22,203 nucleotides of DNA from assembly GCA_016198745.1 (NCBI GenBank), contig JACQHZ010000177.1, forward strand, positions 1 to 22,203, read 5' to 3'. The notes beneath the pieces were generated by a model, which did no database searches, was not told the origin of the DNA, and saw only the letters and a program-made list of their open reading frames with translations. Shown here piece after piece: positions 1-21,117 of this stretch. The position numbers were made by a program, and so were the translations under genes. The stretch is from Verrucomicrobiota bacterium. Its GTDB lineage: Bacteria; Verrucomicrobiota; Verrucomicrobiia; JABWAM01. Position 1 is the first letter of the stretch, and the number at the start of each line of letters is the position of its first letter.

Positions 1-233
1 ACTACGACCAACATGTTGGTTCTAATTTGTGAGTAGCCGGTCAGGGGGGTACATTTTTTGTGCCCCAGTGAGAAACCAGCAACGAATCCGATGCGGAGCG
101 AACCGCGCACCTGCGTTGACGCCGTTTCACTGACGCACCGAACAAGCCCAACCACCGCCGCATGCGGCATGGTCGCGGCAATCTTTTGTCGTCTTCCTGA
201 TTTTCGTTGCTTGTTCCTTCGTCAAATGGATAC

Positions 234-3200: not shown

Positions 3201-3563
3201 GCAGCGGCGGTTCTGACCTCGTTGCGCACTCCTTTTGGAACAAAAACGGTCATTTCCACCGATACAACCTCCTTTATCACCGCGAAAAATGCGGAGGAGG
3301 CGCACTATCTTTGCGCCGTTCTCAATTCTGATGTGGTGGATGAATTTATCCGGAGTTTTTCATCCGGGGGGCGTGGGTTTGGCGCTCCCTCCGTTATGGA
3401 AAATATAGCGATTCCGCTTTTCGAGGCGAACAACCGGCTCCACAAGGGGCTTGCCGAACTCTCCCAAGAGGCTCACAAAGTGGTTGCACGCGCTGAAGAC
3501 ACGACGCCGATGGAAAAAGAAATCAACGCGGCTGTTCGAAAAATATGGAATATCGCCTCCTGA
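234..3563 (+). CDS. Type IIG/IIL single-polypeptide restriction-modification enzyme (MmeI-like): N-terminal PD-(D/E)xK endonuclease, gamma-class N6-adenine DNA methyltransferase, C-terminal target-recognition domain
   Basis: The track's M at 207 is a TTG codon, so I place the start at the first in-frame ATG (234); ATGs at 249/252 are alternatives. N-terminal motif MDAVYGYVIIEYK (D-x8-E-x-K, nt ~453-488) fits a PD-ExK nuclease core as in MmeI. MTase motif X-like LGEYYTPEWLAGYL; motif I VRFLDPACGSGTFLV (nt ~1539-1559); GFDLNPLAVLAARTN; motif IV FVVGNPPWIRWGY (nt ~2136-2147). A ~470-aa C-terminal region after NPPW is consistent with a TRD. Domain order nuclease-MTase-TRD in one ~1100-aa chain is the MmeI/Type IIG architecture. 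Confidence 0.72.
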   Translation: MADQTMMTRLPSAKQVNTEKLAGDILRATQGARTEEDVKMRVEPLLQQAFSEAGIDVNLAEYEKATTVTAKRMDAVYGYVIIEYKAPGKLRGDTAIRDAKTQLQWYLEEESHRHGIQREAFLEKAVGVACDGDSLMFVRYSRTAKILSPPIPVEIQQADLFPEVTPQRGFQSQGPFPITANSMASLLIYVRSAGRRPLTAEGLAKVFSPEHATVRFLISELYSAAMRGQRRSALPRVATFYEEWDRIFGVVYGEKLEKAEKAAEETARLYGLPSGIRLKPLLFAIHTFFAFLMKLIAIELIALQKRLQFSSFVEGLAVEEDDALRKRLDFLESGADFSRQGIVNFLEADFFSWYLDAWNHRLANAIRKIVQALAEFEPATPILEPDWTRDLLQKLYELLVPRVLRHGLGEYYTPEWLAGYLVDKTGYDGAPGVRFLDPACGSGTFLVQAIQRAVKHAETQSKVRIAEVGRAILDGIIGFDLNPLAVLAARTNYLIAFSRFLPYIRPISLPVYLCDSVLPPDQYSEQQQTFFDNTVVFKTRAHDYVFPVSMKNKGMIDQFTGLVMTGLRGKLTPMQFERSLSGQMRLVAADQTRLLEIYRKIKQLDDEGRNGIWAHYIKNAFAPVYVGQFDFVVGNPPWIRWGYLADDYRKQTLKLWHDYGLFSLKGHQTHLGAGEKDFSMLFTYACADRYLKERGTMGFVITQEVFKSKGAGEGFRQFQLGEKGAHLKLLGMEDMVHLQPFQAANKTCIFTLKKGQATSYPVPVVEWKRKTGVSKIHPEWKLEEVLEKTERRNVKAIPVDPRKSVSSWQTATSTGIASSEVLKGKNPYKARLGARVEPYGVFWLNLKAVRPDGMIVVANQHDRGKRDINPVSDSIEPDLVFPAVSGGDLVKFGIRRHFYVLLSQNPKSRKGYEEDWMAENLPHTYAYLTQFKAVLVKRAAYQKYFHKEVKKNGVVVHREAIAPFYSMYNISTESFARHRVVWKRMASRMAAAVLTSLRTPFGTKTVISTDTTSFITAKNAEEAHYLCAVLNSDVVDEFIRSFSSGGRGFGAPSVMENIAIPLFEANNRLHKGLAELSQEAHKVVARAEDTTPMEKEINAAVRKIWNIAS

Positions 3564-4414
3564 AACCTTCTGAGCCGGCTTATCCGAGGAAACTCCTGCA
3601 ACGCATGGGCAAGGAGGCGCCAACGCTTTATTATCATGGTCCGCTCAAGCTGCTCGACCGGTTCACCATGGCCGTGATTGCCGCCGACAGCATTCCGGCG
3701 CCCGCCATGCAGGCCACGAACGACCTGCTTTTCAAGATTCGTGAATACGCCCTGAATTACATCGGTCCCTGGCATTCGGTTTGGGAGACGGAAATCTTTC
3801 GGCTGGCGATTTACACTCCCAATGATCCGCAACGGCTTCGCTCCCTGACCATGCTTACCGCGCGGGGAATGGCGCGGGAGAATTGGGATGACTACCTGAA
3901 CGACCGATTTGGCTACAGCGGTCCCTTCAGAGGGTTCCCCGAAAAGGAGGAGTATTATCGCCGGGCGAAGGATGGGGAATTACTGGTTCTCTCCATCACC
4001 GAACCGGATGTGAAAAGGTTGTTGCGGGAAAACATCCTGTTGAGAAACTGGGTGGCGTGCGCGCTGGCCGACGTGGTTTTCGTGCCGTTTGCCGAGAAGG
4101 GGACGAAGACTTACATCACCTGCAAATTGGTTGTGAAGGCCGGCCTACCGGCCTTTACCTGCCAATACTATCCCGACCGGAATGAGGATCCCAACAAGCA
4201 ACTTTTTGAACTGGGAATTCCCTCGTACAATCGGAAAACGGTGGGGCCGTATCTGGATTCTCTGGGCGCAAGCACCGCCGGAGAAGCGCCGTTTCCGGAG
4301 GTTGAAATGCAATCCTTGATGGAGTCGTCGCCACAATATGGCGCGATTTCCAAATCTACCGGAAATAAAACACGCCAGGCCGAGTTGTGGGAGCGGAAGT
4401 CCATCAAGAAATGA
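3545..4414 (+). CDS. Divergent DprA/Smf-like Rossmann-fold (SLOG superfamily) domain protein, translationally coupled to the RM enzyme
   Basis: ATG at 3545 lies 19 bp inside the upstream RM ORF (stop 3561-3563). N-terminal segment EPAYPRKLL..APTLYYHGPLKLLDRFTMAVIAADS parallels the DprA pattern YP..L..I.DPP.VLY.KG.L.LL....VAIVGSR. C-terminal segment RNWVACALADVVFVPFAEKGTKTYITCKLVVKAGLPAFT parallels DprA RNRIIAGLS..VLVVEA...SGSLITA..A...GR.VFA.PG. The canonical glycine-rich loop (GSRxxSxYG) is replaced by AADSIPAPA, so it is probably not a canonical DprA. Confidence 0.6.
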   Translation: MEYRLLKPSEPAYPRKLLQRMGKEAPTLYYHGPLKLLDRFTMAVIAADSIPAPAMQATNDLLFKIREYALNYIGPWHSVWETEIFRLAIYTPNDPQRLRSLTMLTARGMARENWDDYLNDRFGYSGPFRGFPEKEEYYRRAKDGELLVLSITEPDVKRLLRENILLRNWVACALADVVFVPFAEKGTKTYITCKLVVKAGLPAFTCQYYPDRNEDPNKQLFELGIPSYNRKTVGPYLDSLGASTAGEAPFPEVEMQSLMESSPQYGAISKSTGNKTRQAELWERKSIKK

Positions 4415-4469
4415 AGCGCCATGCCAGGATGACGGGGGATTGTTGCGCGAAACCGAAGCATGCCATACG

Positions 4470-5102
4470 ATGAAAACCTATCTGCAACTTGCGCTTGATG
4501 TGGGAGAAAGCGCGGATTTGTTCGCGTTGGCGGACCGGGTGAAGGCGTGGGTGGACTGGATTGAACTCGGCACGCCGCTGATCAAGCGATACGGCATCGG
4601 CGTCGTCGCCCAGGCGCGAAATGCCTTTCCCAAACATCGCATCCTCGCCGACATGAAAACGACCGACGCTGCGAGGCTCGAAGCGGACATGGCGTTTGAA
4701 GCGGGCGCGGACATCTTCACCGTGCTCGCAGCCGCCTCCGACGCAACCGTCCGTGAGGCCGTGGAAGGCGCGCGGCACCACGGCAAGCAGGTGGTGGTTG
4801 ACCTCATCGGGCAACCCGATCCGATTGCGCGCGCGCAACAACTGATCGGCTTGAAGCCGGACTATTTCAATCTGCACCGCTCGACGGACGCCCGACGCGA
4901 CGGCGCGGAACTGCGTCTGGATTTGATTCGCGAATTCAAATCCCGAATTCCGGCGCCGCTTTCCGTGGCCGGCGGGATTGATCATCAAAACATCCGCGCC
5001 GTCCATGAGGCGGGCGCGGTCGTTGTGGTGGTGGGAAGCGCCATCACCTCGGCTAAGAATCCCGAACGAGTTGCGCGCGCAATGAAGGAGGCGATCCAAT
5101 GA
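4470..5102 (+). CDS. hxlA: 3-hexulose-6-phosphate synthase (HPS; OMP-decarboxylase/KGPDC fold), RuMP pathway
   Basis: From the ATG at 4470, MKTYLQLALDV... matches the HPS N-terminus. ADMKTTDA (Lys/Asp of the KGPDC family), VAGGI and a Gly-rich C-terminus are typical HPS features. The upstream extension of the raw ORF (4338-4469) overlaps the preceding gene and is probably untranslated. Confidence 0.8.
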   Translation: MKTYLQLALDVGESADLFALADRVKAWVDWIELGTPLIKRYGIGVVAQARNAFPKHRILADMKTTDAARLEADMAFEAGADIFTVLAAASDATVREAVEGARHHGKQVVVDLIGQPDPIARAQQLIGLKPDYFNLHRSTDARRDGAELRLDLIREFKSRIPAPLSVAGGIDHQNIRAVHEAGAVVVVVGSAITSAKNPERVARAMKEAIQ

Positions 5103-5635
5103 GTTTGCGTGATGTCACCAATCAAATGGCCGCCGAAATGCGGAAGGTGCTGGCCGGCGTCCGGGAAGCGGAGGTCAGGAGCCTGGAACGCGAAATCCAG
5201 CGCGGAAAGGCTGTCTTTTTCACGGCGGCGGGGCGAACGGCCATTCTGCTGCGCCCATTCGCCATGCGGATGATGCAATACGGCTTTGAAAGCCATGTGG
5301 TGGGGGAAACCACGACGCCGCGCGTAAAGTCCGATGATCTGGTTGTGTTGGCGTCCGGAAGGGGGAACACCGCCGGGGTGGTCCATCGCGCGAAAGAAGC
5401 GCGCTTGCTCGGCGCGCGGGTCTTTGTCATTACCAGCAACCATCAATCGCCCCTCTTTGCGACCGCCACGCATTCGTTGCTGATTCCGCCGCCGCGCGGC
5501 GGATCGTTTCAATTCGGGACCAACTGGTTCGAGCAAGGACTGTTTTTCTTGCTTGAATGCGTCGCGCACCGGCTGGCGCGGGCAAAGAAGATCACTTTTG
5601 AAAAACTTCTCCTGAGACATGCGAGTCTGGAATAA
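5099..5635 (+). CDS. hxlB: 6-phospho-3-hexuloisomerase (PHI), SIS-domain protein, RuMP pathway
   Basis: ATGA overlap with hxlA stop (5099-5102). Sequence ...GKAVFFTAAGRTAIL...LVVLASGRGNTAGVV..ARVFVITSN... is a SIS-domain sugar-phosphate isomerase fold of the size (178 aa) and gene order typical of hxlAB. Confidence 0.78.
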   Translation: MSLRDVTNQMAAEMRKVLAGVREAEVRSLEREIQRGKAVFFTAAGRTAILLRPFAMRMMQYGFESHVVGETTTPRVKSDDLVVLASGRGNTAGVVHRAKEARLLGARVFVITSNHQSPLFATATHSLLIPPPRGGSFQFGTNWFEQGLFFLLECVAHRLARAKKITFEKLLLRHASLE

Positions 5636-5849: not shown

Positions 5850-7247
5850 ATGAACTCATCCATGACCCAACCGGTTCCATCGTCCTTTTTCAGTCCGTCA
5901 TTCCGCGGGTTGATCGGCGTCGCGCGGCGGGACATCACCCCGCCTGTCGGCATCTACGCGCGCAACTGGGGCGCGGCCAAACAGGACACGGCCGAAGGGG
6001 TTCACCGTCCGTTGACGCTGACGGCGCTGACGCTGCGGACCGAACCGCAAAGCAAACCGCTGGCGCTGGTGGATACGGACCTTGGCTGGTGGCGGAGCAT
6101 CTTCAACGAGCAGGCGTTTCGCGGCAAAATCCTGGAAAAACTGGGACTCGATCCTTCGCGGTTCATCTTCACCCTGAGTCATACCCATTCCGCGCCGCCG
6201 TTGACCGAGCCTCATCCGGATTGGCAGGGCGGCGAATTATTGCGCGGTTATCTGGAGACGCTTCGTCATGCAACCATCGAGGCGGTTTTGAACGCCTTGA
6301 AATCGGCGACGCGCGCCACCCTCGAATGGCACACCGGTCGTTGCCAACTGGCGGCCAACCGCGATTTGCCCGATCCCGACCCGACAAGGCGTCGCGTTGT
6401 TTGCGGATTTCATCCGGATGCCGATTCCGATGACACGTTGCTGATCGGACGCGTGACGGACGACGCCGGCAGGATTCTTGCGACGCTGGCCAACTACGCA
6501 TGTCATCCCACCACCCTGGCATGGGACAACAGGCTTCTGTCGCCCGATTACATTGGCGCGATGCGCGAGACGATCCAGGATCACACCGGCGGCGCGCCGG
6601 CGATCTTTCTCCAGGGCGCATCAGGCGAACTTGCGCCGCGCTACCAATACGTCGGCGATCCCGCCGTGGCTGATGCGCATGGCCGGCAACTGGCGTTCGC
6701 AGCGCTCGCGACGCTCGCCGACATGGAACCGTCGGGCACTGAACTGGCCTATGGCGGAGTCATCGAATCCGGCGCGCCATTGGCAATTTGGAAACGCCAG
6801 CCGCGCCGCGCCTCCGACGTGTTGCGGGCGTTCCATTCCACCGTCGAATTGCCGTTGAAAGACTGGCCGTCCGCCGCTGAACTGGAACGGCAGCGCCATG
6901 CCTGCGCCGACCGCGTCCTGGAGGAACGTCTTCGTCGCAAACGGGACATCCGACTTGTGTTGGGCGACGGAAAGACGTTTCCGCTGCCTTTCTGGGTGTG
7001 GCGCATGGGCGACGCATTTCTGGTCGGCTGCATGGCCGAATCGTATTCGTGGTTGCAGCAACATCTTCGACGCCGGTTTGTCGGGCGCGCGATTGCGTGC
7101 ATGAATCTGGTCAACGGCTCGATCGGCTACCTGCCCCCGGCTAAATCGTACGACGCCGATGCCTATCAGGTCTGGCAAACGGCGTTCGACCGCGGCAGCC
7201 TGGAAATTTTGGCTGCTGCTTATGAACGCGCCATCGAAACGCTTTAG
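5850..7247 (+). CDS. Neutral/alkaline non-lysosomal ceramidase N-terminal-domain-like protein (catalytic-domain-only, 465 aa)
   Basis: GVARRDITPPVGIYARNWGAA resembles the conserved G.A..DITPP.G..M.GY start of the neutral ceramidase domain. LSHTHSAPP resembles the conserved THSGP metal-binding segment. It is shorter than full-length ceramidases and has no obvious signal peptide. Confidence 0.5.
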   Translation: MNSSMTQPVPSSFFSPSFRGLIGVARRDITPPVGIYARNWGAAKQDTAEGVHRPLTLTALTLRTEPQSKPLALVDTDLGWWRSIFNEQAFRGKILEKLGLDPSRFIFTLSHTHSAPPLTEPHPDWQGGELLRGYLETLRHATIEAVLNALKSATRATLEWHTGRCQLAANRDLPDPDPTRRRVVCGFHPDADSDDTLLIGRVTDDAGRILATLANYACHPTTLAWDNRLLSPDYIGAMRETIQDHTGGAPAIFLQGASGELAPRYQYVGDPAVADAHGRQLAFAALATLADMEPSGTELAYGGVIESGAPLAIWKRQPRRASDVLRAFHSTVELPLKDWPSAAELERQRHACADRVLEERLRRKRDIRLVLGDGKTFPLPFWVWRMGDAFLVGCMAESYSWLQQHLRRRFVGRAIACMNLVNGSIGYLPPAKSYDADAYQVWQTAFDRGSLEILAAAYERAIETL

Positions 7248-12147: not shown

Positions 12148-15100
12148 TCAGGATGATGGACGGCGGCGGGATGGCTTGGATGCCTGCCCCTTGAGTTGAT
12201 TGAGGAGTTCCTGATAATTTCGCAGCATGAGGTCAACTTCGGCGCGGAGTTGCTGCAGTTGCGTCGTGGTGAGGCGGTCGGTGGCGAGGCTGTTCTCCAT
12301 CCACGCCTGCATGACCTGGAACTGGCGCTGAATGATGTTGGTGAAAACTTCCGGCACGCTGTAACGCACCTCGATCTGGTAGCCGGGTGGTCCGCTTTCG
12401 CCGGGAGCTTGCATCGGCGGTTCGGAAGGGGCAGGCGCAATGTCCGCGGACACGGAGGCCGGCTCCGTCGCAGCGGGGGGGTGATGGGGCAGGGCGGAGG
12501 CGACTGCCGGCGTCGCCGTGGAGGCCGGTTGTTGCCGCCAATCGTCCAAAAACTTGCGAACCACATCGAGCGTGTCAGTGGAGATGGAGGTTTCGATCTG
12601 CCGCGGCCCGGTCGCCGATTGCATTTGCTCCACGGTCGTTCGCGTCTGCCGCGCCAATCCTTCGGTCACGCTGTTTTTGATCGCCTCCAGCCCCTCGCGA
12701 AACGCGGCAAGTTGAACAACCACCTTGCCCACCGGATCGCCGGGGTCGGCCTCGGCAAAGAGCTGCTTCCGTTTGTAGGTGGACGTGATCTCGGTCCATC
12801 GTTCTTTTTCCTTTTCCGTCTGCGCGCCAAACATTTCCTTGAACTTGAGCAGGTTCGCTTCGGCGCCGGTGGCGAGGGTCTGCGCCTCGTTCTTGTAGTG
12901 ATCGTCAAGCAGATTGCGAATCTCCTCCTCGTTCATGATGGGGACGACCTTTTCCGCCAGACGATTCATGTTGCGGTAGGACCCTTGCAGCTTGAACGCG
13001 GGCTCCGTCCGGTAGGCATCGGCCTGGGCCGCGGAACGGATGTATTCCTGGTTGACCCGCAAGACCACGTCGCGGATTCGCAACAGGGATTTCATCACCG
13101 CCACCATCTCGCCGACCTCCTCTGGCGAATAGCTGCCCTCGAACTCGATTCCCTCGGCGGAACCCGTTTCCGCATAGCGAACGATCGCGAATACATCCTT
13201 CTGATTCTTGACGCTGAGCCGCTGAAGATAGGGATTCGAGGTGATCGCGTTTTCCAGGCAGCTCATTCGGAAGACAGCCTCCTGGTTGCCGATGATATCG
13301 CCGAGGTTGTAGGTGTCGGCGCGGTTGGCCAGCATGTCCGGAATCTTGAACTTCTCGCCGCTCTCGGTGTAGGGGTTGCCGGCCATCACCACCGCCACCT
13401 TTCGTCCCCGCAAATCGTAGGTGCGCGGCGCGCCCTGATAAACGCCTTCGATCCGGCGCTGGGCGTCGCAAAGGGAGATGAATTTCTGCAGAAACTCCGG
13501 GTTGCAATGTTGGATGTCGTCCAGGCAGATCATGACGTTGTCGCCCATTTCCAGCGCCAGGTTGAGCTTGGCCACCTCCTCGCGAGCGGTGGCATTGGGC
13601 GCCTCGGCGGGATCGAGCGAAGTCACGTTGTGGCCGAGGGCGGGGCCGTTGATTTTCATGAAGACAAGCCCCAAGCGATTGGCCACGTACTCGACCAGGG
13701 TGGTCTTGCCATAGCCCGGCGGCGAAATCAACAGAAGCAGCCCCATGCGATCGGTGCGCTTGTCGGCGCCCGCCACGCCGATCTGCTTGGCCAGGTTGGC
13801 GCCGATGAGCGGCAGGTAGGATTGGTCAATCAATTGGTTGCGCACAAACGTCGTGAGCACGCGCGCCTTGAAATCGTTCAAGCGCAACGCCTCGCGTTTT
13901 CGGTCCATGAGACTCTTCTTGATCCCGCTGTAACGTTCGAAAGCGGCGGCACGCTCGCGAATGAACCGCCGCAGCTTCGCGATGAAGGCATGGTAATGGA
14001 AGGCGTAGGCACGGTCCTTCAGCGCCGCGTGATTGCCCATAAAATCGGCGAGCTTGGCCTTGACGCTCACCTCGACCACCTGGGAAGGGTCGAAGGCGTT
14101 GTAAAACAACAGGGCGGCCGCCTCCTCCACGAACTCCGGATCGTGTCCGCCGTTCCGGGAAACAAAAGCGCCCAACCAGTCCATGATCACGTCAAAGCCG
14201 GCCAAACGGTCGCCCTTCACCGAATCGCGCGCGTTCTCGAAGGGACCCTGAAACAATTTTATTCGCAAATGATCGTCGAAATCCTTCAGGATCGTCGCCG
14301 CCTCCTGGCTGATGACAAACCGCTCCCGGCTGACGAATTCATGGAACAGGTATTCGGCTGCGTCGTCCACGATCTCGGCGGAAAACAACCTGCTCCGTTG
14401 GACAAAGCCGCCCACGAGTTCCCGTAACTCGGCCAGGTACGCCTCCTGTCTTTCACCACCCGGAAAAAGCCCGCTCAACGCGCCGAGGCTCTTGAGCTTG
14501 GCCTGGATCACCTCCCGACGGGCGGCATCCGGGCATTCGTTCCAAGCCAGGCGGGCGCAAGCGCGCGCGCGTGGGTGATAGCGCAGCAACCCGATTGCCG
14601 CATGCGTCCCCGCCAGCGCCCGCAGGATTGCCGCCGCATCCGGATCGTGAACCCCCTTGACATAACCTTCGGCATAACGCGACGCCATGAATGCGCGAAC
14701 CAATTCGACCCGCTGCTCGTCGGTCATCTTCATGATCTCCGTGAGCGGCTTGCTCCGTCCGGCGAGGCTTTCCTGGAACAGCACGTAGGCCAGGTATTCC
14801 GATCGGTAAACCTCGCGGTCCTCGGAAACAACCTCCTGATCCCATACGGCGCGGGTGGCAAGAAAATCCGGCTCCTGGATTTTCTCGAAATAGTTGGTGC
14901 CGGCCAGGTGATAAAACATCTCGCCGTCGCGCGGGACGACGGTGAGGTCCAGCGGCTGGGTGTTGACCGAAAATTTGTGCGGACCGAACTGGATGATGCT
15001 CTTGCCGTCCACGAACAATTCGAGGCGGTCCTTGAGCTGCTGGACGGCGCTTTCGCGGATGCTCTTGAGACGGTTCTGGATTTCGTCCGCCTTGACCGTG

Positions 15101-17544
15101 TCCTCCAGTTCCACGAGCTGCGCCACGATCTCCCGGACCTTTTCCACCATCAGGTCCGAGGCGAAATAGCTGTTGATCTCGTTGAGATTGTTGAACGCCT
15201 CGGCGCGATTTTTTACGCCGTTCAGGATGCGGTCGGCGGTGGCCAGAAAAACGCCGGCCCGTTTGTTGCGCGCCTCCACGAGCTGCAGTTTTTTCGCGGA
15301 CAGCGCGTTGTAAATCTCCTCGCGCTTGGCTGCGAGCTTCTGAAGGTGCTCCTCGAAATCGGCGAAGCGCCCCTCGATTTCCTCGATCTGCACCATCAGT
15401 TTGGTCAGGCACTCATCGCATTTCTTCGCGGTGTCGCACAAATCGAGATAATTGGCCGCCGCCTGGTCGAGCAGTTTGACCTGCGCGCCGAACTGGGCTT
15501 CCCCTTCCACGCCAAGCAGTTCTTTTTTCCGCGTCTTGAGCGATGCCTTGGCCTGGTTGAGCGTGGCGTAGATGGCGGAAATGTTTTCGATGATGCGCGT
15601 GGTTTCGGTGGAATCTTCGATCTTGAGGTTGCCGACGATCTCCACCAGCATCTCCAATTCTTTGGAACAGGCGGCGAGTTCCTCCTCCAGCCTGGCGGCC
15701 TCGGTCACTTTCTTGAGATGCTCGACCGCGCCGCGCTGTTTCCCGACCCTCTGCTGGTAGGGTTGGAGCGCCTCCGGTTTCAGCAGGAACTCGACGCACA
15801 GCTTCGAAAGCCGATCCAGGTGTTCGGCCGCCTCCTTTTCGAGACCGTCCACCGCCGGCGCGTCAATGTAGCGCAACTCCTTCAGCGAGATGATCTCGCC
15901 CCGCACCGCGCGCAGGGCAGTCAGACATCCCACGAAGGCATCGATGGATTTGAGGTTGGTGTAATCGATTCCCCCGATCAGGTCCGCCGTCTTCTGTTTG
16001 ACGCGGCCGAGTTCCCCCGCCGTGTTGCGGCGGATGTTGGCGACCTTTTCGAACTCGTCAATGGCGGCGGTCGCCGCATTTTTGATCTCGACCAGGGCTT
16101 CCCGAAGATTGAATGCGTTGGAATCCCCCAACCAAAAATAGGCGTCCGTGATGTCGGTGGCCTTCTTGACAAGGTCCACGTAGAGGTCGCCGTAAGTGTC
16201 CTGCTTGGCGATCAGGTTCAACAACTCGTTGCACTCGGCCATGCAGGTGACGATGGGCGCATTGCCGATCTTGAACAGGAAGGAGTCCTTTTTGGCCGAG
16301 GGCGGGGCATTCCGGCTGAGGAACGGCGTCCGCCAGATCTGCAGCGAATGATGGCGGCGCGCCTCTTCGTTGCACTTGAAGCAGATCAACTCGCCGCCCG
16401 CGAACAGGGAATACCCGTTGCAGATGATCGGCGTCTCCGTGCCGCGCTCGATCCGGTTGTACGTCAGCAGGATGTAAACCCCGGTGGACACATTGAAGAA
16501 GACGTAGATGAAATCCTCGCCGTTGGGCGCTTCGTGTCGGGTGTAAAACCGCATGTCGGCCAGGCCGGTCTCGAAGAGCTTGAATTCGCCGGTCTGAAGG
16601 CAATAGCCATTTTGAAAGATGATGCCCTGCTCATCCGGCAGTCGGACGCACGAATCTCCGATCTGATCGATGCGCTTGACCTCGTTCGTCTTTCCATTGA
16701 AAACCAGATAGCGGTATTTTTGCTCCTCGAACGGACGTATTTTCAGCAGGATCAAATTGCCGACGGTCGCAAAGTATATCTCCGCGTCATCCAGCGTCTG
16801 GTCCTTGTTCTCGACCGGCTCCGAGTAGATGCCGTGGCCGGAGGCGGTGTTGTCCTCCACCTTGATGGTCAGATTGCCGTCCAGCGTATCGACAAACACG
16901 CGGTCCTCGATGGAGACGTGCGGGTGCCGCCCCGGACGATGAAGATCACGCGTCGCCCGGTTCCACTCAAACTCCTGCTGCGGCGGAAAACCGGTTTCAT
17001 GATCGAAGCGGTTGCCAAGGTAGTTCACCCCCTTGTCGTCAAGCCGCCATTTGAATGCCTTGATGTCCGAGGCGCTCTTTCCGATTTGAAACACCATGTA
17101 AAAATGAGGCTCGCCCCAGTGGAACCGGCTGAAAACCGTTTCCTTGTAGTAACGGTACAGCTCCTTGAAATCCATTTGGAACGCCTCTGCGTTCAGAATG
17201 TCCAGCGGCAGTTCGTGGAACGCGTGTTCCCGGTATTCGTAAATGCCGAAGACGTCCTCGACTTTGGTCTCCGACCGCAAGCCCATGCTGACATTGTAAC
17301 CGAAGATGAACCGGTTCTTGTTCGCCGGGATCATGTCCCGCGGCACGCAGTTGTTCTTCGTGGCCACGTGTTCGGTGGCCAAAAGCTCGAACTCGATGGC
17401 GCCAAAGACCTCCTTGCGCGCGGCGTTGAGCTGATCGAGGCGCCCGCGCAGTTCCTTGCCTTGCGCGAGCAGGCGATTGCGAAGGATCTCGTACGTCCCG
17501 CTCTCCAGGACGACGTTTGGTGTGACTGCCTTATCTTCGGGCAT
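12148..17544 (-). CDS. Giant (1798 aa) multidomain protein of unknown function with one embedded AAA+ ATPase module of AAA_5/MoxR-McrB type (residues ~1265-1420; nt ~13285-13752)
   Basis: Uninterrupted 5.4-kb ORF. Walker A LLLISPPGYGKTTL (nt ~13699-13740 on the - strand), Walker B VMICLDDIQ, sensor-1-like KVAVVMAGNP followed by IPDMLANRAD (arginine-finger region), then a helical lid. N-terminal ~1260 aa: predicted beta-rich region (~res 200-400), long coiled-coil/helical regions (~res 480-850), additional helical domains. C-terminus: Pro/Ala/Thr/Ser-rich linker (res ~1670-1722) plus a short helical tail. No family I can name with confidence. Confidence 0.6.
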   Translation of the reverse strand: MPEDKAVTPNVVLESGTYEILRNRLLAQGKELRGRLDQLNAARKEVFGAIEFELLATEHVATKNNCVPRDMIPANKNRFIFGYNVSMGLRSETKVEDVFGIYEYREHAFHELPLDILNAEAFQMDFKELYRYYKETVFSRFHWGEPHFYMVFQIGKSASDIKAFKWRLDDKGVNYLGNRFDHETGFPPQQEFEWNRATRDLHRPGRHPHVSIEDRVFVDTLDGNLTIKVEDNTASGHGIYSEPVENKDQTLDDAEIYFATVGNLILLKIRPFEEQKYRYLVFNGKTNEVKRIDQIGDSCVRLPDEQGIIFQNGYCLQTGEFKLFETGLADMRFYTRHEAPNGEDFIYVFFNVSTGVYILLTYNRIERGTETPIICNGYSLFAGGELICFKCNEEARRHHSLQIWRTPFLSRNAPPSAKKDSFLFKIGNAPIVTCMAECNELLNLIAKQDTYGDLYVDLVKKATDITDAYFWLGDSNAFNLREALVEIKNAATAAIDEFEKVANIRRNTAGELGRVKQKTADLIGGIDYTNLKSIDAFVGCLTALRAVRGEIISLKELRYIDAPAVDGLEKEAAEHLDRLSKLCVEFLLKPEALQPYQQRVGKQRGAVEHLKKVTEAARLEEELAACSKELEMLVEIVGNLKIEDSTETTRIIENISAIYATLNQAKASLKTRKKELLGVEGEAQFGAQVKLLDQAAANYLDLCDTAKKCDECLTKLMVQIEEIEGRFADFEEHLQKLAAKREEIYNALSAKKLQLVEARNKRAGVFLATADRILNGVKNRAEAFNNLNEINSYFASDLMVEKVREIVAQLVELEDTVKADEIQNRLKSIRESAVQQLKDRLELFVDGKSIIQFGPHKFSVNTQPLDLTVVPRDGEMFYHLAGTNYFEKIQEPDFLATRAVWDQEVVSEDREVYRSEYLAYVLFQESLAGRSKPLTEIMKMTDEQRVELVRAFMASRYAEGYVKGVHDPDAAAILRALAGTHAAIGLLRYHPRARACARLAWNECPDAARREVIQAKLKSLGALSGLFPGGERQEAYLAELRELVGGFVQRSRLFSAEIVDDAAEYLFHEFVSRERFVISQEAATILKDFDDHLRIKLFQGPFENARDSVKGDRLAGFDVIMDWLGAFVSRNGGHDPEFVEEAAALLFYNAFDPSQVVEVSVKAKLADFMGNHAALKDRAYAFHYHAFIAKLRRFIRERAAAFERYSGIKKSLMDRKREALRLNDFKARVLTTFVRNQLIDQSYLPLIGANLAKQIGVAGADKRTDRMGLLLLISPPGYGKTTLVEYVANRLGLVFMKINGPALGHNVTSLDPAEAPNATAREEVAKLNLALEMGDNVMICLDDIQHCNPEFLQKFISLCDAQRRIEGVYQGAPRTYDLRGRKVAVVMAGNPYTESGEKFKIPDMLANRADTYNLGDIIGNQEAVFRMSCLENAITSNPYLQRLSVKNQKDVFAIVRYAETGSAEGIEFEGSYSPEEVGEMVAVMKSLLRIRDVVLRVNQEYIRSAAQADAYRTEPAFKLQGSYRNMNRLAEKVVPIMNEEEIRNLLDDHYKNEAQTLATGAEANLLKFKEMFGAQTEKEKERWTEITSTYKRKQLFAEADPGDPVGKVVVQLAAFREGLEAIKNSVTEGLARQTRTTVEQMQSATGPRQIETSISTDTLDVVRKFLDDWRQQPASTATPAVASALPHHPPAATEPASVSADIAPAPSEPPMQAPGESGPPGYQIEVRYSVPEVFTNIIQRQFQVMQAWMENSLATDRLTTTQLQQLRAEVDLMLRNYQELLNQLKGQASKPSRRRPSS

Positions 17545-17551
17545 AGCAACT

Positions 17552-17587
17552 GCTCAGGTGTCAGGTTCAGGGTTCAGGGTTCAGGGT
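17552..17587. repeat. Tandem heptamer repeat array, ~5 imperfect copies of GGTTCAG (CCTGAAC on the - strand), in the 5' leader of the giant gene
   Basis: Direct reading: gctcagg tgtcagg ttcagg gttcagg gttcagg gt. Sits 8-43 nt upstream of the giant-gene start codon (17544, - strand). Confidence 0.8.
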
Positions 17588-17820
17588 ATTGCGGCGTGCG
17601 ACAACTTTCCGGTGGTTTTCGTGCTTGGCTAACTCACGCGCCTGTTCGCGGCATGGCAGGCGGGCCAATTGCCACGCCTCAATATCCTCCAATCGTTTGA
17701 CCCGCCTGCCAAGCGGCGGGCAGGTCTTCATATTTGCCCGACCTCTCTCGCCCTCGCCGCTCGCCGTTGCGACGAAACGCTCTGACGTGGTCGGAAAGCC
17801 TCCGGCGTAGTGGGGGACCC

Positions 17821-17867
17821 TTTGAACCACCCTGCATAGGGTGGTGAACCCGGAACCGTGAACCGTA
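17821..17867. repeat. Repeat-family copy plus embedded perfect 7-bp-stem palindrome (ccaccct-gcat-agggtgg) downstream of the flotillin gene
   Basis: tttgaacc-ACCCTGCATAGGGTGG-tgaacc cggaaccgtgaaccgtag: GAACC units flank a hairpin (17827-17844). It lies 13-60 nt 3' of the flotillin stop on the - strand, so it is a possible terminator or REP-like structure. Confidence 0.6.
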
Positions 17868-17879
17868 GTACTCACTCGT

Positions 17880-19970
17880 CTATTTCTTGCCCGTCGGCTC
17901 CTCGCTCACGACTTCACCCAGCAGCTTGCCGCCGAGTCCGGCGCCTTCCGCCCACTTCTTGAAGCGCTGCAGCGCCGTTCGCATGCTGACGTTGGGCGCG
18001 AGCGGGATCATCTGGGAAACCGCGGCCGTGATGGTGAGGTTGCGGAGATCCTCGGACGTCAGTCCGAACTGATCCACCCATTTCTTGAGTTGATTGCGGA
18101 AGTAACCGGGGTCGGAGGGATCGAAGAACGTGTCGCGCACCGCCGACAGCGTGCGGCTGTTGTCCACCACCCGGTCCACGACCTTGCCGCCCGTGACGGC
18201 ATTGACGATCTTGTTGAAGAACTCGGTCTCGCCGCCCACGATATCGATCTTCGCGCTCTTGAGCGCCTCGCCGACCACCCCGGCTTGGGCCATGGCGATA
18301 TCCTTGCGAATCCCGATCTCGGCCAGGGCCAGGTCTTTTTCCACGGTGAGCTGGATCTTGAACTCCTCGTGCTCGCGCCCGACGGCGTTGAACTGCTTCA
18401 TCGCCTCGGCCTTGCGGAGGATGCCGTCCGCGTCGGCCTCGAACTTCAACCGCATGACCGTCGCCTCCGCGGTGCCCTGCTTCTGGTTGGCCGCGGCCCT
18501 GGCCTCGGTCACCTGCGCCTCGGCGAGGCCGCCCGCCGCGTTTTCGGCGGTGATGCCCTCGGCCAGTTTCTTCTTGGCGCTCGCCAGTTCGGCGGCGGCG
18601 GAATGCTCGCCCTGCGCCTCGATGACCTCTTTTTGCGCGTGCAGTTCGGCGGCCCGTTTCGCCGCTTCGGCGGCTTTCACCTGGGTGAACATCTCCTGCT
18701 CGGCCTTGAGTTCGGCGGCCTTCTTGGAGGCCTCGGCCGCCTTGATGTTTCGAATCACCTGCTGGTCCGCGTCCGCTTCCGCGGCCGTCACGGTCACCCG
18801 CTTGGCGCGGTCGGCTGTGAAAAAAGCCTCGGTATCCTTGATCTTCTGTTCCTCCTCCACGACGGCCTTCTGCACCGTGACCCGCTGGCGGATCACATCC
18901 TGGATGTTCTTCTTCTCCACCTCGACGGCCTTCTCCTTCTCGATGCCGGTCAGGGTGACGATTCGCTCGCGTTCGATGTCCTCAAGCTGGCGATCCTTTT
19001 CCACCCGCACGGTCTCGACGGCATTGGTGCGTTCCTTGTTCTTCAGCGCCACGATGATCTGCCGTTCCTTGTTCTGCTCGGCAACCTGCACCTCCTCTTC
19101 GGTGGCGATCCGGGCCTTCTCTGCTTTGAGGTGCCCTTCTTGCTGGACCTTGAGCGTCTCCGACTCCTCGCGCGCCGTGATGGAGGCCACCTCCCGTTTC
19201 TGTTTCTGCTCCGCCTCCGCCAACTGGCGATTCTGTTCGAGGATCAACTCGCGCGTCTCGACGTTCTTCTGGTTGAGATCGCGCTCGCAATTGCGGTTGA
19301 ATTCATTGGTGAGGATCTTCTGTTGCGCCGTTCGTTCCGTGATTTTCTTGATGCCCTCTGAATCCAAAATGTTGTCGATATCCAACATCTCCACCGGGGT
19401 CTGCTCCAGGTGATCGATGGCGGCGTCGTCCAGCACATAGCCATTCAGGTCGGTGCCGACGTGACGCTTGATGGCTTCGCGAAAATCAGCGCGTTTGTTG
19501 AGCAGGTCCACAAAATCAAAATCACGCCCGGCCGTCTTGAGCGCGTCAGAAAACTTGGGTTCAAAAAGTTGAGCCAGAATTGCTTCATCCGAGCCCCGCT
19601 GACAGCCGAGCGTTTGGGCAACGTGCCGCACGTGATCCTCGTTTTTGCTGTCCACCCGTATATAAAAGGTCACTTTGATGTCCGCGCGCAGGTTGTCCTT
19701 GCAGATCAAGCCGTTGGCGCCGTGCCGATGGATCTCGACGCGCTTGACCGAGACATCCAGGTATTCCAGCTTGTGGACGATGGGCAGAATGATCATGCCG
19801 TTAACCGACATCTTCGTGCCGCCCAAGCCTGTCCGAACAAGCGCCTGTCCCTGGGTGGGTATGCGAAATGTCCAGCCGACGACGAGACGGAGCAGGATGT
19901 AACCACTGACAAAAACAACGCCCGCTCCGAAAATCCAAAGAACAATCTGAATTATGAAAGCAATGGTCAT
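17880..19970 (-). CDS. Flotillin-family SPFH/band-7 protein (YqiK/FloT-like) with long Glu/Ala/Lys-rich coiled-coil region
   Basis: From the ATG complement at 19968-19970: MTIAFIIQIVLWIFGAGVVFVSGYILL (membrane hairpin) then the SPFH core RIPTQGQALVRTG.GG..MSVNGMIILPIVHKLEYLDVSVKRVEIHR...LICKDNLRADIKVTFYIRV. ~280 aa of E/A/K/Q-rich repeats (flotillin EA repeats) and a C-terminal globular region. The longer raw ORF to 20156 is an upstream extension. Confidence 0.8.
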   Translation of the reverse strand: MTIAFIIQIVLWIFGAGVVFVSGYILLRLVVGWTFRIPTQGQALVRTGLGGTKMSVNGMIILPIVHKLEYLDVSVKRVEIHRHGANGLICKDNLRADIKVTFYIRVDSKNEDHVRHVAQTLGCQRGSDEAILAQLFEPKFSDALKTAGRDFDFVDLLNKRADFREAIKRHVGTDLNGYVLDDAAIDHLEQTPVEMLDIDNILDSEGIKKITERTAQQKILTNEFNRNCERDLNQKNVETRELILEQNRQLAEAEQKQKREVASITAREESETLKVQQEGHLKAEKARIATEEEVQVAEQNKERQIIVALKNKERTNAVETVRVEKDRQLEDIERERIVTLTGIEKEKAVEVEKKNIQDVIRQRVTVQKAVVEEEQKIKDTEAFFTADRAKRVTVTAAEADADQQVIRNIKAAEASKKAAELKAEQEMFTQVKAAEAAKRAAELHAQKEVIEAQGEHSAAAELASAKKKLAEGITAENAAGGLAEAQVTEARAAANQKQGTAEATVMRLKFEADADGILRKAEAMKQFNAVGREHEEFKIQLTVEKDLALAEIGIRKDIAMAQAGVVGEALKSAKIDIVGGETEFFNKIVNAVTGGKVVDRVVDNSRTLSAVRDTFFDPSDPGYFRNQLKKWVDQFGLTSEDLRNLTITAAVSQMIPLAPNVSMRTALQRFKKWAEGAGLGGKLLGEVVSEEPTGKK

Positions 19971-20154
19971 GGTGACTCCTTTGAGATGGGTGGGTCCTTC
20001 TTTCCCGCGTGTATCACGAAACGCAGGAAGCACATGCACTTTGACGAACGCGCAAGGGAAAGACAACCACGAAACGACTCCAAAAACGCCTTGCAAATGG
20101 AAACGAAACGCGTCAAGTTGCGCGCAAGGCTCGCTGATCAGCAGCCCGTCCCTC
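19971..20154. promoter_or_regulatory. Divergent intergenic region between the flotillin (-) and Sel1-repeat (+) genes carrying short direct repeats (CACGAAACG x2-3; CGCGCAAGG x2)
   Basis: cacgaaacgc (~20014), cacgaaacga (~20068), aaacgaaacgcg (~20101); gcgcaaggg (~20050) and gcgcaaggc (~20122). No confident -35/-10 call. Confidence 0.35.
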
Positions 20155-21117
20155 ATGACCGCCCCGTTGCATTCCGCTTCCCGTCAGAAGGTGGACCTGG
20201 TATTCGATGTCATCGAGTATTTTCTTCCGTTCTTCGAGCGGTTGATCGGACGGTTGCTGGGGTTTCCACCCGAGCGCGAAAAAATGGTGGCAGCGCTGGA
20301 CGCCCTGCGTGACATTGCGGAAAAGGGCAATCCTCAAGCTCAGGAAAGGTTGGGCAGGGTTTTTCAAAAGGGCGAGGGCGTTCAGCAGGATTTCAGCGTC
20401 GCGGCTGACTGGTTGAAGAAGGCCGCCGACCGCGGCGTCCACAGCGCCCAGGATCAACTCGGCGTGATGTACGAAACCGGCATGGGTGTACAGCAGGATC
20501 ACGTGAAGGCATTCGAGTGTTTCCGTCAGGCTGCCGAGCAGGGATTGGCCGCCGCTCAACTGCGCCTCGCATCAGCTTACGAAGAAGGCAACGGAACCTC
20601 TCAGGATCAGGGCGAGGCGCTCAAGTGGTGTCTCAAGGCTGCCGCCCAGGGATTGGCCGAGGCGCAAAACAAGGTGGGTGTCATCTTCGAGAACGGACTC
20701 GGCGTAACCCAGGATTATGAAAAGGCGCTCCGCTGGTATCGCAAGGCGGCCGGGCAGGGACTGGTCGAGGCGCAGAAACATCTGGCAGAAATGCACCAGA
20801 AAGGACTGGGCATCCCGCAGGACGATCAAAAAGCCCTCCGCTGGTACCGCCGCGTGGCCGAACAAGGGGACGCCGAGGCGCAATACAAGGTGGCGCAAAT
20901 CTACGAAAACGGCCTGGGCGTCGCCAAGAATCCCGTCGAGGCATTCAAATGGTTCGAGGTCGCGGTCGCGCACGGCTTCAGCAATGCCGACCAACGCAAA
21001 GCAGCCCTGGAAGCGTTGCTGCCCGCCGAAGACCTGGGGAAGATCAAATCGCAAGCGGCAGACCTGGTCCGCGAGATCAAGAAAATCAGCAACAGTTACG
21101 CGACCCCAAACCGGTGA
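20155..21117 (+). CDS. Sel1-like repeat (SLR/TPR-like) protein
   Basis: At least six ~36-aa repeats of the form A..W(Y)(R/K)KAA.QG...AQ..LG..Y..G.GV.QD. Start placed at the in-frame ATG at 20155 (MTAPLH...). The raw ORF from 19954 would overlap the flotillin 5' region. Confidence 0.75.
   Translation: MTAPLHSASRQKVDLVFDVIEYFLPFFERLIGRLLGFPPEREKMVAALDALRDIAEKGNPQAQERLGRVFQKGEGVQQDFSVAADWLKKAADRGVHSAQDQLGVMYETGMGVQQDHVKAFECFRQAAEQGLAAAQLRLASAYEEGNGTSQDQGEALKWCLKAAAQGLAEAQNKVGVIFENGLGVTQDYEKALRWYRKAAGQGLVEAQKHLAEMHQKGLGIPQDDQKALRWYRRVAEQGDAEAQYKVAQIYENGLGVAKNPVEAFKWFEVAVAHGFSNADQRKAALEALLPAEDLGKIKSQAADLVREIKKISNSYATPNR

Follow-up and report, generated by a model that had tools for sequence, protein, structure and literature searches.

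The closest described relative of the locus studied here is the bacABCDEF "biofilm-associated cluster" of P. aeruginosa, whose genes bacA-F are co-transcribed (Wallart et al. 2024, PMC10948618). In addition to the flotillin BacD (PA3729) and the giant ATPase BacE (PA3728/PA14_16190), the operon comprises bacA (CesT/Tir-like), bacB (PspA), bacC (YqiJ-like), and bacF (PLD family). In a bacA mutant, BacB-F are jointly up 6- to 13-fold (PMC10948618), and PA3728-PA3732 are up-regulated by phage infection (PMC12041424). Deletion of paFlo3/bacD, the flotillin gene, lowers P. aeruginosa biofilm by only ~20% and has no stress phenotype under the tested conditions (PMC13086221). The operon type has already been described from comparative genomics by Ravi et al. 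2024 (mSystems, PMC11237479), in one paragraph, without structure, motif analysis, or experiment.

The analyzed window, a Verrucomicrobiota contig of 22,203 nucleotides (JACQHZ010000177.1), carries the flotillin and ATPase genes only. It has the same architecture and neighborhood as the operon of Ravi et al. and represents their "abbreviated operon", although in an even shorter form, since the YqiJ-like gene is missing; the extended form was recovered here in Bacteroidota (locus L042 and others).

The giant ATPase gene occupies positions 12148..17544 (minus strand) and encodes 1798 amino acids. The open reading frame is genuine, as originally called, and not a chance one, because more than 5500 full-length homologues (E<=1e-10) are found across phyla, with cross-phylum identity of 50-57% and, for many of them, query coverage of ~90%. 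By sequence, the protein is a member of the DUF3686 giant ATPase family of the BacE/PA3728 type. The original prediction could assign it to no named family; names do exist, namely Pfam DUF3686 and DUF7902, the NCBI name "DNA repair ATPase", and BacE/PA3728. The window protein and its counterpart from the P. aeruginosa bac locus (P0123) share 42% identity over 1667 aa (E = 0), are collinear over the full length with the same Pfam domains, and are both encoded directly downstream of orthologous flotillin genes. The P. aeruginosa gene order reads DUF2170, PspA, 213 aa, 688 aa, 1746 aa, PLD, YaeQ, RecJ, LasB, and the 1746-aa protein is identified as PA3728/BacE by this order up to recJ and lasB. 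We know of no reported mutant phenotype or biochemistry for BacE.

The family is widespread and highly conserved: it is found in Proteus, Vibrio, Pontibacter, Hymenobacter, and P. aeruginosa, where the sequence cluster of the ATPase has 3222 members. Its distribution is patchy and includes megaplasmid copies (pQBR103, Deinococcus, Streptomyces). The protein has zero TM-like segments (maximal KD19 = 1.30) and is predicted to be soluble and cytoplasmic. The Rfam scan gave no match, and the promoter/terminator scan gave a result at chance level.

The ~1260 N-terminal residues, previously considered unassignable, can be assigned because two Pfam families match here over their entire profiles. DUF3686 (PF12458, E 4.3e-177, profile positions 1-448/448) covers residues 31-470 (16135..17454, minus strand), and DUF7902 (PF25472, E 5e-28, profile positions 1-85/85) covers residues 591-675 (15520-15774, minus strand). 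The AF2 model of the DUF3686 region shows an N-terminal helix and a beta-propeller (27 predicted strands, pLDDT ~90), the latter probably with seven blades. All Foldseek matches of this region are generic beta-propellers (Elp1, Ctf4, prolyl oligopeptidase, DDB1, clathrin NTD). DUF7902 lies inside a predicted long-helix bundle or coiled-coil arm at residues 471-845 (15010..16134, minus strand), with helices of up to 58 residues. The expected beta-rich block followed by coiled coil is thus reproduced by the model, with a beta-rich N-terminus and then ~425 aa of long helices. Residues 846-1235 (13840..15009, minus strand) form three further elements in the AF2 models: a small beta domain (~850-890), an all-alpha domain (~892-1150, pLDDT >94), and, up to residue 1235, a short beta element with a helix of 37 residues that connects to the ATPase. 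No other folded part of the protein is less conserved; identity across phyla is ~40%.

The AAA+ module at residues 1236-1600 (12745..13839, minus strand), consisting of an alpha/beta core, a lid, and a helical extension, is the only P-loop module both in the Pfam search and in the AF2 model, in agreement with the original prediction. Its core shows 84% identity across phyla. Walker A (residues 1274-1281, 13702..13725, minus strand) reads SPPGYGKT, not GPPGYGKT as had been written, and its G, K, and T show no variation among 93 sequences. The other motifs were correctly placed: Walker B, ICLDD, at residues 1339-1343 (13516..13530, minus strand), and the segment from sensor-1 VVMAGNP (from residue 1385) to IPDMLANRAD (from residue 1401), at 13315..13392 (minus strand), identified from invariant columns and the model. 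In the same 93 sequences, D1342, D1343, Q1345, and H1346 of the Walker B region are invariant, as are N1390 of sensor-1 and R1408, R1512, and R1524; R1408 is a candidate arginine finger. The PPGYGKT, DDIQH, AGNPYTESG, and NRAD columns are invariant in the 12-, 93-, and 8-sequence alignments, window protein included. The motor is likely active, judging from these residues and from the core identity; however, the family consensus of Walker B, hhhhDDIQH, has Asp-Asp in place of the usual Asp-Glu, hence, hydrolysis is an assumption.

Assignment of the module to an AAA+ clade comes from the predicted structure. The AAA_5 profile scores 29.0 bits (gathering cut-off 22), although generic AAA in Pfam is equally good (29.8 bits); NCBIfam yields sub-threshold P-loop matches only. 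In the PDB sequence-profile search, only ~40 residues around the P-loop (to beta2) match, and only p97-type proteins; due to this restriction, the clade cannot be placed by sequence profiles. The closest solved folds to the predicted model are CbbQ and NorQ, both MoxR ATPases, and the module is modeled as MoxR-like. The model has a beta-hairpin at residues 1364-1377, between alpha3 and beta4, that is, in the pre-sensor-1 position, and a conserved 18-residue loop (1300-1317), not predicted as a hairpin, in the helix-2 position.

The C-terminal region, residues 1671-1798 (12151..12534, minus strand), was delineated by pLDDT <50, composition, and conservation. As expected, it consists of a linker (~1671-1730), Pro/Ala/Ser-rich and of low model confidence, followed by a tail of two helices. 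Identity here is 14-19%, and the region is absent from Bacteroidota homologues (~1650 aa).

The flotillin gene lies 335 nt upstream of the ATPase gene, on the same strand (17880..19970, minus strand), and encodes a YqiK-type protein of 696 aa, assigned by profile alignment to YqiK and conserved synteny. The true start is at MTIAF... and not at the start of the 758-aa open reading frame. The protein has one TM segment, an N-terminal helix followed by Arg residues; a divergent SPFH domain comes next, and then a long coiled coil. Pfam Band_7 (PF01145) does not match either the 758-aa or the 696-aa form, even at E 10, and the PDB sequence search found no relative; for this reason, the homology was established through hhalign of the 12-sequence flotillin family to E. 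coli YqiK (reference sequence from NC_000913.3), with probability 99.95%, E 4.4e-38, and 397 aligned columns. The flotillin neighbor of the original prediction thus stands by profile comparison, although not by a Band_7 match. The window flotillin is 40% identical to BacD/PA3729 of P. aeruginosa and 50-56% identical to the partners in other phyla.

The association of the two genes is conserved. Among 69 informative loci, from Verrucomicrobiota, Planctomycetota, Bacteroidota, Desulfobacterota, Calditrichia, Hydrogenedentota, and Kiritimatiellota, 64 have a flotillin-like gene upstream in the same orientation: within 1.5 kb in 61 and within 3.1 kb in three more; in four or five loci, the surrounding 8 kb contain no flotillin. 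The usual third gene, upstream of the flotillin gene in 59/66 loci, is YqiJ/NfeD-like and homologous to E. coli YqiJ (E 1.7e-9, profile comparison). The window contains no match to this gene or a remnant of it, even at E 10, and its place is taken by an oppositely oriented Sel1-repeat gene. Two close relatives (L089 and L090, with ATPases 70% and 57% identical) also have no adjacent YqiJ-like gene. The core unit is the flotillin with the ATPase, and a two-gene form exists in Verrucomicrobiota. Three further minus-strand open reading frames, 17567-17875, 20113-20559, and 20572-21054, were rejected as spurious, having neither a Pfam match nor similarity to the compared partner proteins; the latter two are antisense to the Sel1-repeat gene. 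Some 8 kb away, the window further contains a type IIG-like RM gene.

Besides the flotillin and YqiJ-like genes, there are no conserved neighbor families. CesT_Tir-PspA genes directly precede the cassette in 7-8/84 loci, in Bacteroidota, and such additions are also seen in Pseudomonas loci. In pQBR103, the cassette sits in a YjfI-PspA...SPFH-ATPase array. A PLD-family gene adjoins the cassette in several loci, and Bacteroidota loci have a divergent S24/HTH regulator. Among the large open reading frames of the window, a 22-kb contig only, no match to PspA or CesT was reported. The observed synteny shows functional coupling, and says nothing on which protein is the substrate.

The giant ATPase probably remodels membrane-bound flotillin assemblies under membrane stress. 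In a more specific form, to which we give an even chance, it would act, as a unit with the upstream flotillin, as an ATP-driven cytoplasmic remodeler within a membrane-stress module of the PSP type, with the flotillin assembly as its target. Here, the flotillin would oligomerize into an assembly at the inner membrane, on its cytoplasmic side; the ATPase would form oligomers via its MoxR-like AAA+ ring; the beta-propeller and coiled-coil arms may dock on the flotillin assembly or on proteins held there; and ATP hydrolysis would assemble, disassemble, or otherwise remodel the flotillin (possibly PspA) scaffold, within a membrane-stress and repair response of the PSP type. A bolder version, which we offer tentatively, is that BacE-type ATPases are dedicated, ATP-powered remodelers of flotillin cages in bacteria and, by way of these cages, of membrane repair of the PspA type; such an ATPase might be a soluble, MDa-scale AAA+ ring with six propeller-tipped arms gripping the flotillin dome. 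The membrane-proximal ATP-driven machine or scaffold of the original prediction is retained here in its link to the flotillin, but not in its link to the downstream transporter genes.

Several other explanations have to be weighed. MoxR ATPases activate or mature other enzymes, usually with a VWA/MIDAS partner as a co-factor, and the giant ATPase could be a maturation chaperone of this kind, inserting a cofactor into, or assembling, a membrane complex corralled in a flotillin microdomain, with the flotillin as a scaffold and not a substrate. Such a role would agree with CbbQ and NorQ as the nearest solved folds and with the modeled beta-propeller and coiled coil, which resemble client-binding and spacer modules. 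However, neither a VWA/MIDAS partner gene nor a candidate client gene is conserved nearby, nor was a VWA match reported among the large open reading frames of the window, and we regard this explanation as unlikely.

The polymer acted upon may also be PspA, a member of the ESCRT-III superfamily: the ATPase would then disassemble PspA polymers in the manner of Vps4, while the flotillin merely recruits it to the damaged membrane. The presence of PspA with its CesT/Tir partner at the head of the cassette in 7-8 Bacteroidota loci, in pQBR103, and in P. aeruginosa argues for such a role, which would imply that genomes with the short cassette encode PspA elsewhere. We consider it rather unlikely.

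A conflict or anti-phage function, with the giant NTPase sensing infection and, jointly with the PLD-family enzyme, aborting it by an action on the membrane, is quite improbable. It is consistent with the patchy distribution including megaplasmids, the PLD-family gene and S24/HTH regulator noted above, the type IIG-like RM gene of the window, and the induction of the operon by phage infection (PMC12041424); the induction, however, would be equally expected of a generic phage-shock response. PADLOC gives no system-level match: LmuB matches over the coiled coil only (E 1.3e-7), and IetA over just 29 P-loop residues (E 9e-4). A tblastn search against phages found no homologue of the ATPase, and both the very high cross-phylum conservation (50-84%) and the 3222-member P. 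aeruginosa cluster argue against this function.

The role of a DNA repair ATPase, implied by the Pfam and NCBI names, is very improbable. Apart from the name, it draws on a RuvB_N match that spans 52 residues at the P-loop and falls below the cut-off (26.4 bits against 27, E 7e-6), but Pfam, NCBIfam, and the fold search reveal no DNA-binding, nuclease, or recombinase domain, the fold searches yield propellers and AAA+ folds only, and the conserved neighbors are membrane proteins. The literature search found no mention of DUF3686 or PF12458 and none linking "DNA repair ATPase" with flotillin; the database name looks unfounded.

Finally, the giant ATPase as part of the ABC-2/GldG/DUF4340 transporter encoded downstream, an association made originally from the window, where the ABC ATPase gene has the same orientation and begins 54 nt past the stop codon with no convincing terminator in between, can be dismissed, as this link is effectively refuted by non-conserved synteny: GldG and DUF4340 occur near the ATPase in 2/84 loci only, there ~5.5 kb off and on the opposite strand, and are absent in the closest relatives (70% and 57% identical).

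Much work has been devoted to bacterial flotillins and PspA; to our knowledge, no ATP-consuming partner has been established for their assembly or turnover. The DUF3686/BacE family is a strong candidate for such a partner, because of the near-constant flotillin adjacency, the 84% core identity, the tractable hosts, and the phage-induced orthologues. Should the bolder version given above hold, the ATPase would supply flotillin dynamics in bacteria with their first known energy source and would parallel Vps4/ESCRT-III and FtsH-HflK/C in function. The window protein itself adds a further member to the family and does not constitute a new system; a domain map and a set of candidate point mutants are now at hand.

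Compared to other known systems, the E. coli YqiJ-YqiK operon has homologous flotillin and NfeD-like genes but no giant ATPase, and ~270 C-terminal residues of the window flotillin family do not align with YqiK. Compared to MoxR proteins (CbbQ, NorQ, RavA; AAA_5), the window ATPase has no VWA partner, ~1230 extra N-terminal residues, Asp-Asp in Walker B, and a helix-2 insert not predicted as a hairpin. In the window, an SPFH-family scaffold is coupled genetically to an AAA+ ATPase at the inner membrane; the combination of an AAA+ machine with an SPFH cage is likewise seen, as an analogy only, in FtsH-HflK/C, prohibitin/m-AAA, and SLP2/YME1L. FtsH is membrane-anchored and protease-bearing, with a classical-clade AAA+ module, whereas the window ATPase is predicted to be soluble, has no protease domain, and would face a cytoplasmic flotillin; the flotillin-ATPase pair may be a soluble counterpart of FtsH-HflK/C.

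The ORF at 12148..17544 on the minus strand translates, as originally predicted, into a 1798-aa giant protein. At E<=1e-10 it has over 5500 database matches, the best 120 of which are full-length, spanning 1670–1910 aa with 50–57% identity even between phyla. The gene is real and strongly constrained. No family had been assigned to the protein; Pfam DUF3686 (PF12458), however, covers residues 31–470 end to end (E 4e-177), and DUF7902 matches residues 591–675. The window ATPase is thus a further member of a known, functionally uncharacterised family, whose operon type was already described by Ravi et al. (PMC11237479), and its local peculiarity is a two-gene Verrucomicrobial form without YqiJ. 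Searching all of 1.84 billion cluster representatives for the propeller region (see below) gave 734 proteins at E<=1e-3; the complete-looking ones among the best 150 of these have 1600–1930 aa, and hence the propeller domain appears to be restricted to the giant-ATPase architecture.

The N-terminal domains, formerly considered uncharacterised, can be parsed in two AlphaFold2 models built from a 93-sequence alignment (mean pLDDT 86 and 81.5). The predicted layout comprises an N-terminal helix (residues 15–47); a beta-propeller of 27 strands, probably with seven blades (about 53–405); bundles of long helices of up to 58 residues (420–845); a small beta domain (about 850–890); an all-alpha domain with pLDDT above 94 (about 892–1150); a 37-residue helix (1184–1220); the AAA+ core and lid (about 1236–1600); a low-confidence Pro/Ala/Ser-rich linker (about 1671–1730); and a two-helix tail (1732–1787). 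Identity over 11 homologues of other lineages is 84% in the AAA+ core, 57% in the propeller, 41% in the all-alpha domain, and under 20% in the tail. No TM-like segment was found in the window ATPase, and the protein is cytoplasmic.

Walker A reads SPPGYGKT (residue 1274), and the GPPGYGKT quoted previously does not occur; the other quoted motifs are present, namely ICLDD (Walker B, residues 1339–1343; 13516–13530, minus strand), VVMAGNP (residue 1385), and IPDMLANRAD (residue 1401). K1280/T1281, D1342/D1343, N1390, R1408, R1512, and R1524 are invariant across the 93 sequences, and the nucleotide site is conserved and probably competent. The Walker B consensus of the family alignments A2, A3, and A6 is hhhhDDIQH, with Asp-Asp invariant in the 93 sequences, whereas AAA+ proteins usually have Asp-Glu; unlike classical AAA+ unfoldases, the family has a conserved post-beta2 loop, INGPALGHxVTSLDPxEAPNA, without an aromatic pore-loop residue. 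Pfam AAA and AAA_5 both match residues 1270–1395 above the cut-off, although weakly. The predicted model places a beta-hairpin (residues 1364–1377) at the pre-sensor-1 site; at helix 2 it has a conserved loop of 18 residues and no hairpin. The sequence match to solved AAA+ proteins is limited to the stretch from the P-loop to beta2; hence, "MoxR-like" is the best label, though a provisional one, for the single AAA+ module, which is retained as claimed originally.

Gene neighborhoods were compared in 80 loci of species-representative genomes, taken from at least 579 confirmed matches, and in four loci found by exact look-up. A same-strand flotillin-like gene lies upstream within 1.5 kb in 61 of the 69 loci with enough upstream DNA and within 3.1 kb in three more, so that the predicted synteny with flotillin is seen in 64/69 loci. 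A gene for a membrane protein of ~210 aa, a homologue of E. coli YqiJ (E 1.7e-9), precedes flotillin in 59/66 loci, and clustering of all ORFs of the fetched loci revealed no further conserved neighbor. Judged by gene order, the giant ATPase is genetically coupled to YqiK-type flotillin, near-obligately, and to PspA, recurrently.

The window flotillin (17880–19970, minus strand; 696 aa, start MTIAF) is encoded upstream of the ATPase; it has one TM helix, at the N-terminus, along with a long coiled coil. It has no Pfam Band_7 match; a 12-member alignment of its family matches E. coli YqiK with a probability of 99.95% (E 4e-38). No YqiJ-like gene was found in the window, and the Verrucomicrobial relatives L089 and L090 (70% and 57% identical) show the same two-gene form; in the position taken by the YqiJ/NfeD-like gene in 59/66 other loci, the window has a gene for a Sel1-repeat protein (19954–21117, plus strand; six repeats, E 1e-63), divergent from flotillin. 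The 335 nt that separate the flotillin stop codon from the start of the ATPase gene (17545–17879) yielded no Rfam match and no convincing coding-strand terminator; it contains a GC-rich hairpin near 17700–17727 and, just upstream of the ATPase ATG, about three copies of a short CCCTGAA-type tandem repeat. The gap is 670–880 nt in five Bacteroidota loci (L037, L042, L064, L067, L080) and larger in L053 and L071; such gaps could hold an extra small gene, and the 113-aa ORF in L042 has no homologue in the other loci.

SPFH proteins elsewhere form cages working with AAA+ machines (FtsH–HflK/C), and MoxR ATPases are ring-shaped remodellers. The N-terminal TM helix of the flotillin is followed by Arg residues, which suggests a cytoplasmic SPFH and coiled-coil assembly that shares its compartment with the ATPase. 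By analogy, we consider it an even chance that a ring-forming ATPase remodels a flotillin scaffold: the AAA+ ring would be the oligomerisation interface, the propeller-tipped helical arms would grip the flotillin assembly or proteins trapped inside it, and ATP would be spent to assemble, disassemble, or reshape the scaffold during membrane stress. The flotillin link and the membrane-proximal machine proposed originally both stand, the latter as an inference.

A MoxR-style chaperone serving an unknown membrane client is a rather unlikely alternative. Vps4-like action on PspA ranks next and is likewise unlikely, and a conflict or defence module is improbable. Action in DNA repair, as implied by the Pfam description of PF12458 ("ATPase involved in DNA repair") and the NCBI label of homologues ("DNA repair ATPase"), is very improbable: RuvB matches of the window protein cover 52 P-loop residues only, under the cut-off, no search of it gave a DNA-related domain, and a literature search found no mention of DUF3686 or PF12458, so that no support was found for the name. 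Membership in an ABC/GldG transporter, whose ABC ATPase, ABC-2 permease, GldG-like, and DUF4340 genes the window also encodes, is the least credible reading and was rejected, since GldG and DUF4340 occur in no more than two loci, on the other strand at a distance of about 5.5 kb, and are absent beside the closest relatives (70% and 57% identical).

Other plus-strand genes of the window encode an apparent fused type IIG/IIL restriction-modification enzyme of 1118 aa (207–3563; N6_Mtase, Eco57I, and TaqI_C domains); a 289-aa protein with a sub-threshold DprA-like match (3545–4414); OMPdecase/HUMPS-family (4338–5102) and SIS-domain (5099–5635) proteins, with a 4-nt gene overlap, resembling a hexulose-phosphate synthase/isomerase (RuMP-type) pair; and a 465-aa protein with a sub-threshold neutral-ceramidase N-terminal match (5850–7247).

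Abbreviated operons without PspA are widespread (Ravi et al., PMC11237479). The extended operon was recovered in Bacteroidota, on plasmid pQBR103, and in P. aeruginosa; in 7–8 Bacteroidota loci it comprises CesT_Tir_1 (E 4e-54), PspA_IM30 (E 4e-41), YqiJ-like, flotillin, and ATPase genes. These Bacteroidota loci also carry a divergent HTH and S24-peptidase (LexA-like, self-cleaving) regulator (L042, 1974–2771, minus strand, and six others), which hints at damage-inducible control. A PLD hydrolase is sometimes added (Ravi et al., PMC11237479); we observe a small PLDc_2 gene, bacF in P. aeruginosa, beside the cassette in L088 (13260–13952), L042 (1286–1981), L010, L018, L055, and L086 (22843–22929, cut at the locus end), including two Planctomycetota and two Bacteroidota loci. 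L086 is the Pseudomonas megaplasmid pQBR103 (NC_009444.1, 84437–97641), whose array encodes YjfI, PspA, rhomboid, DUF2491, DUF350, DUF1190, GspS-like, hypothetical, SPFH, and "DNA repair ATPase" proteins; here YjfI, PspA, DUF2491, DUF350, DUF1190, and GspS-like form an E. coli yjfIJKLMC-like set, joined with the rhomboid protease to SPFH and the giant ATPase.

The P. aeruginosa cluster, with 3222 member sequences, has the gene order DUF2170, PspA, 213 aa, 688 aa, 1746 aa, PLD, YaeQ, RecJ, LasB, which identifies the 1746-aa protein as PA3728/PA14_16190, the BacE of bacABCDEF. The genes bacA–F are co-transcribed, with a sigma-54 promoter proposed; BacB–F rise together 6- to 13-fold in a bacA mutant, and bacA and bacB mutants have defects in biofilm, rhamnolipid, and virulence (PMC10948618). 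The ATPase orthologues are stress-induced, and phage infection induces PA3728–PA3732 (PMC12041424). Single deletion of bacD has only a marginal effect (PMC13086221). Published reports on the operon contain no BacE biochemistry or mutant phenotype. BacE is 42% identical to the window protein over 1667 aa, and BacD/PaFlo3 is 40% identical to the window flotillin.
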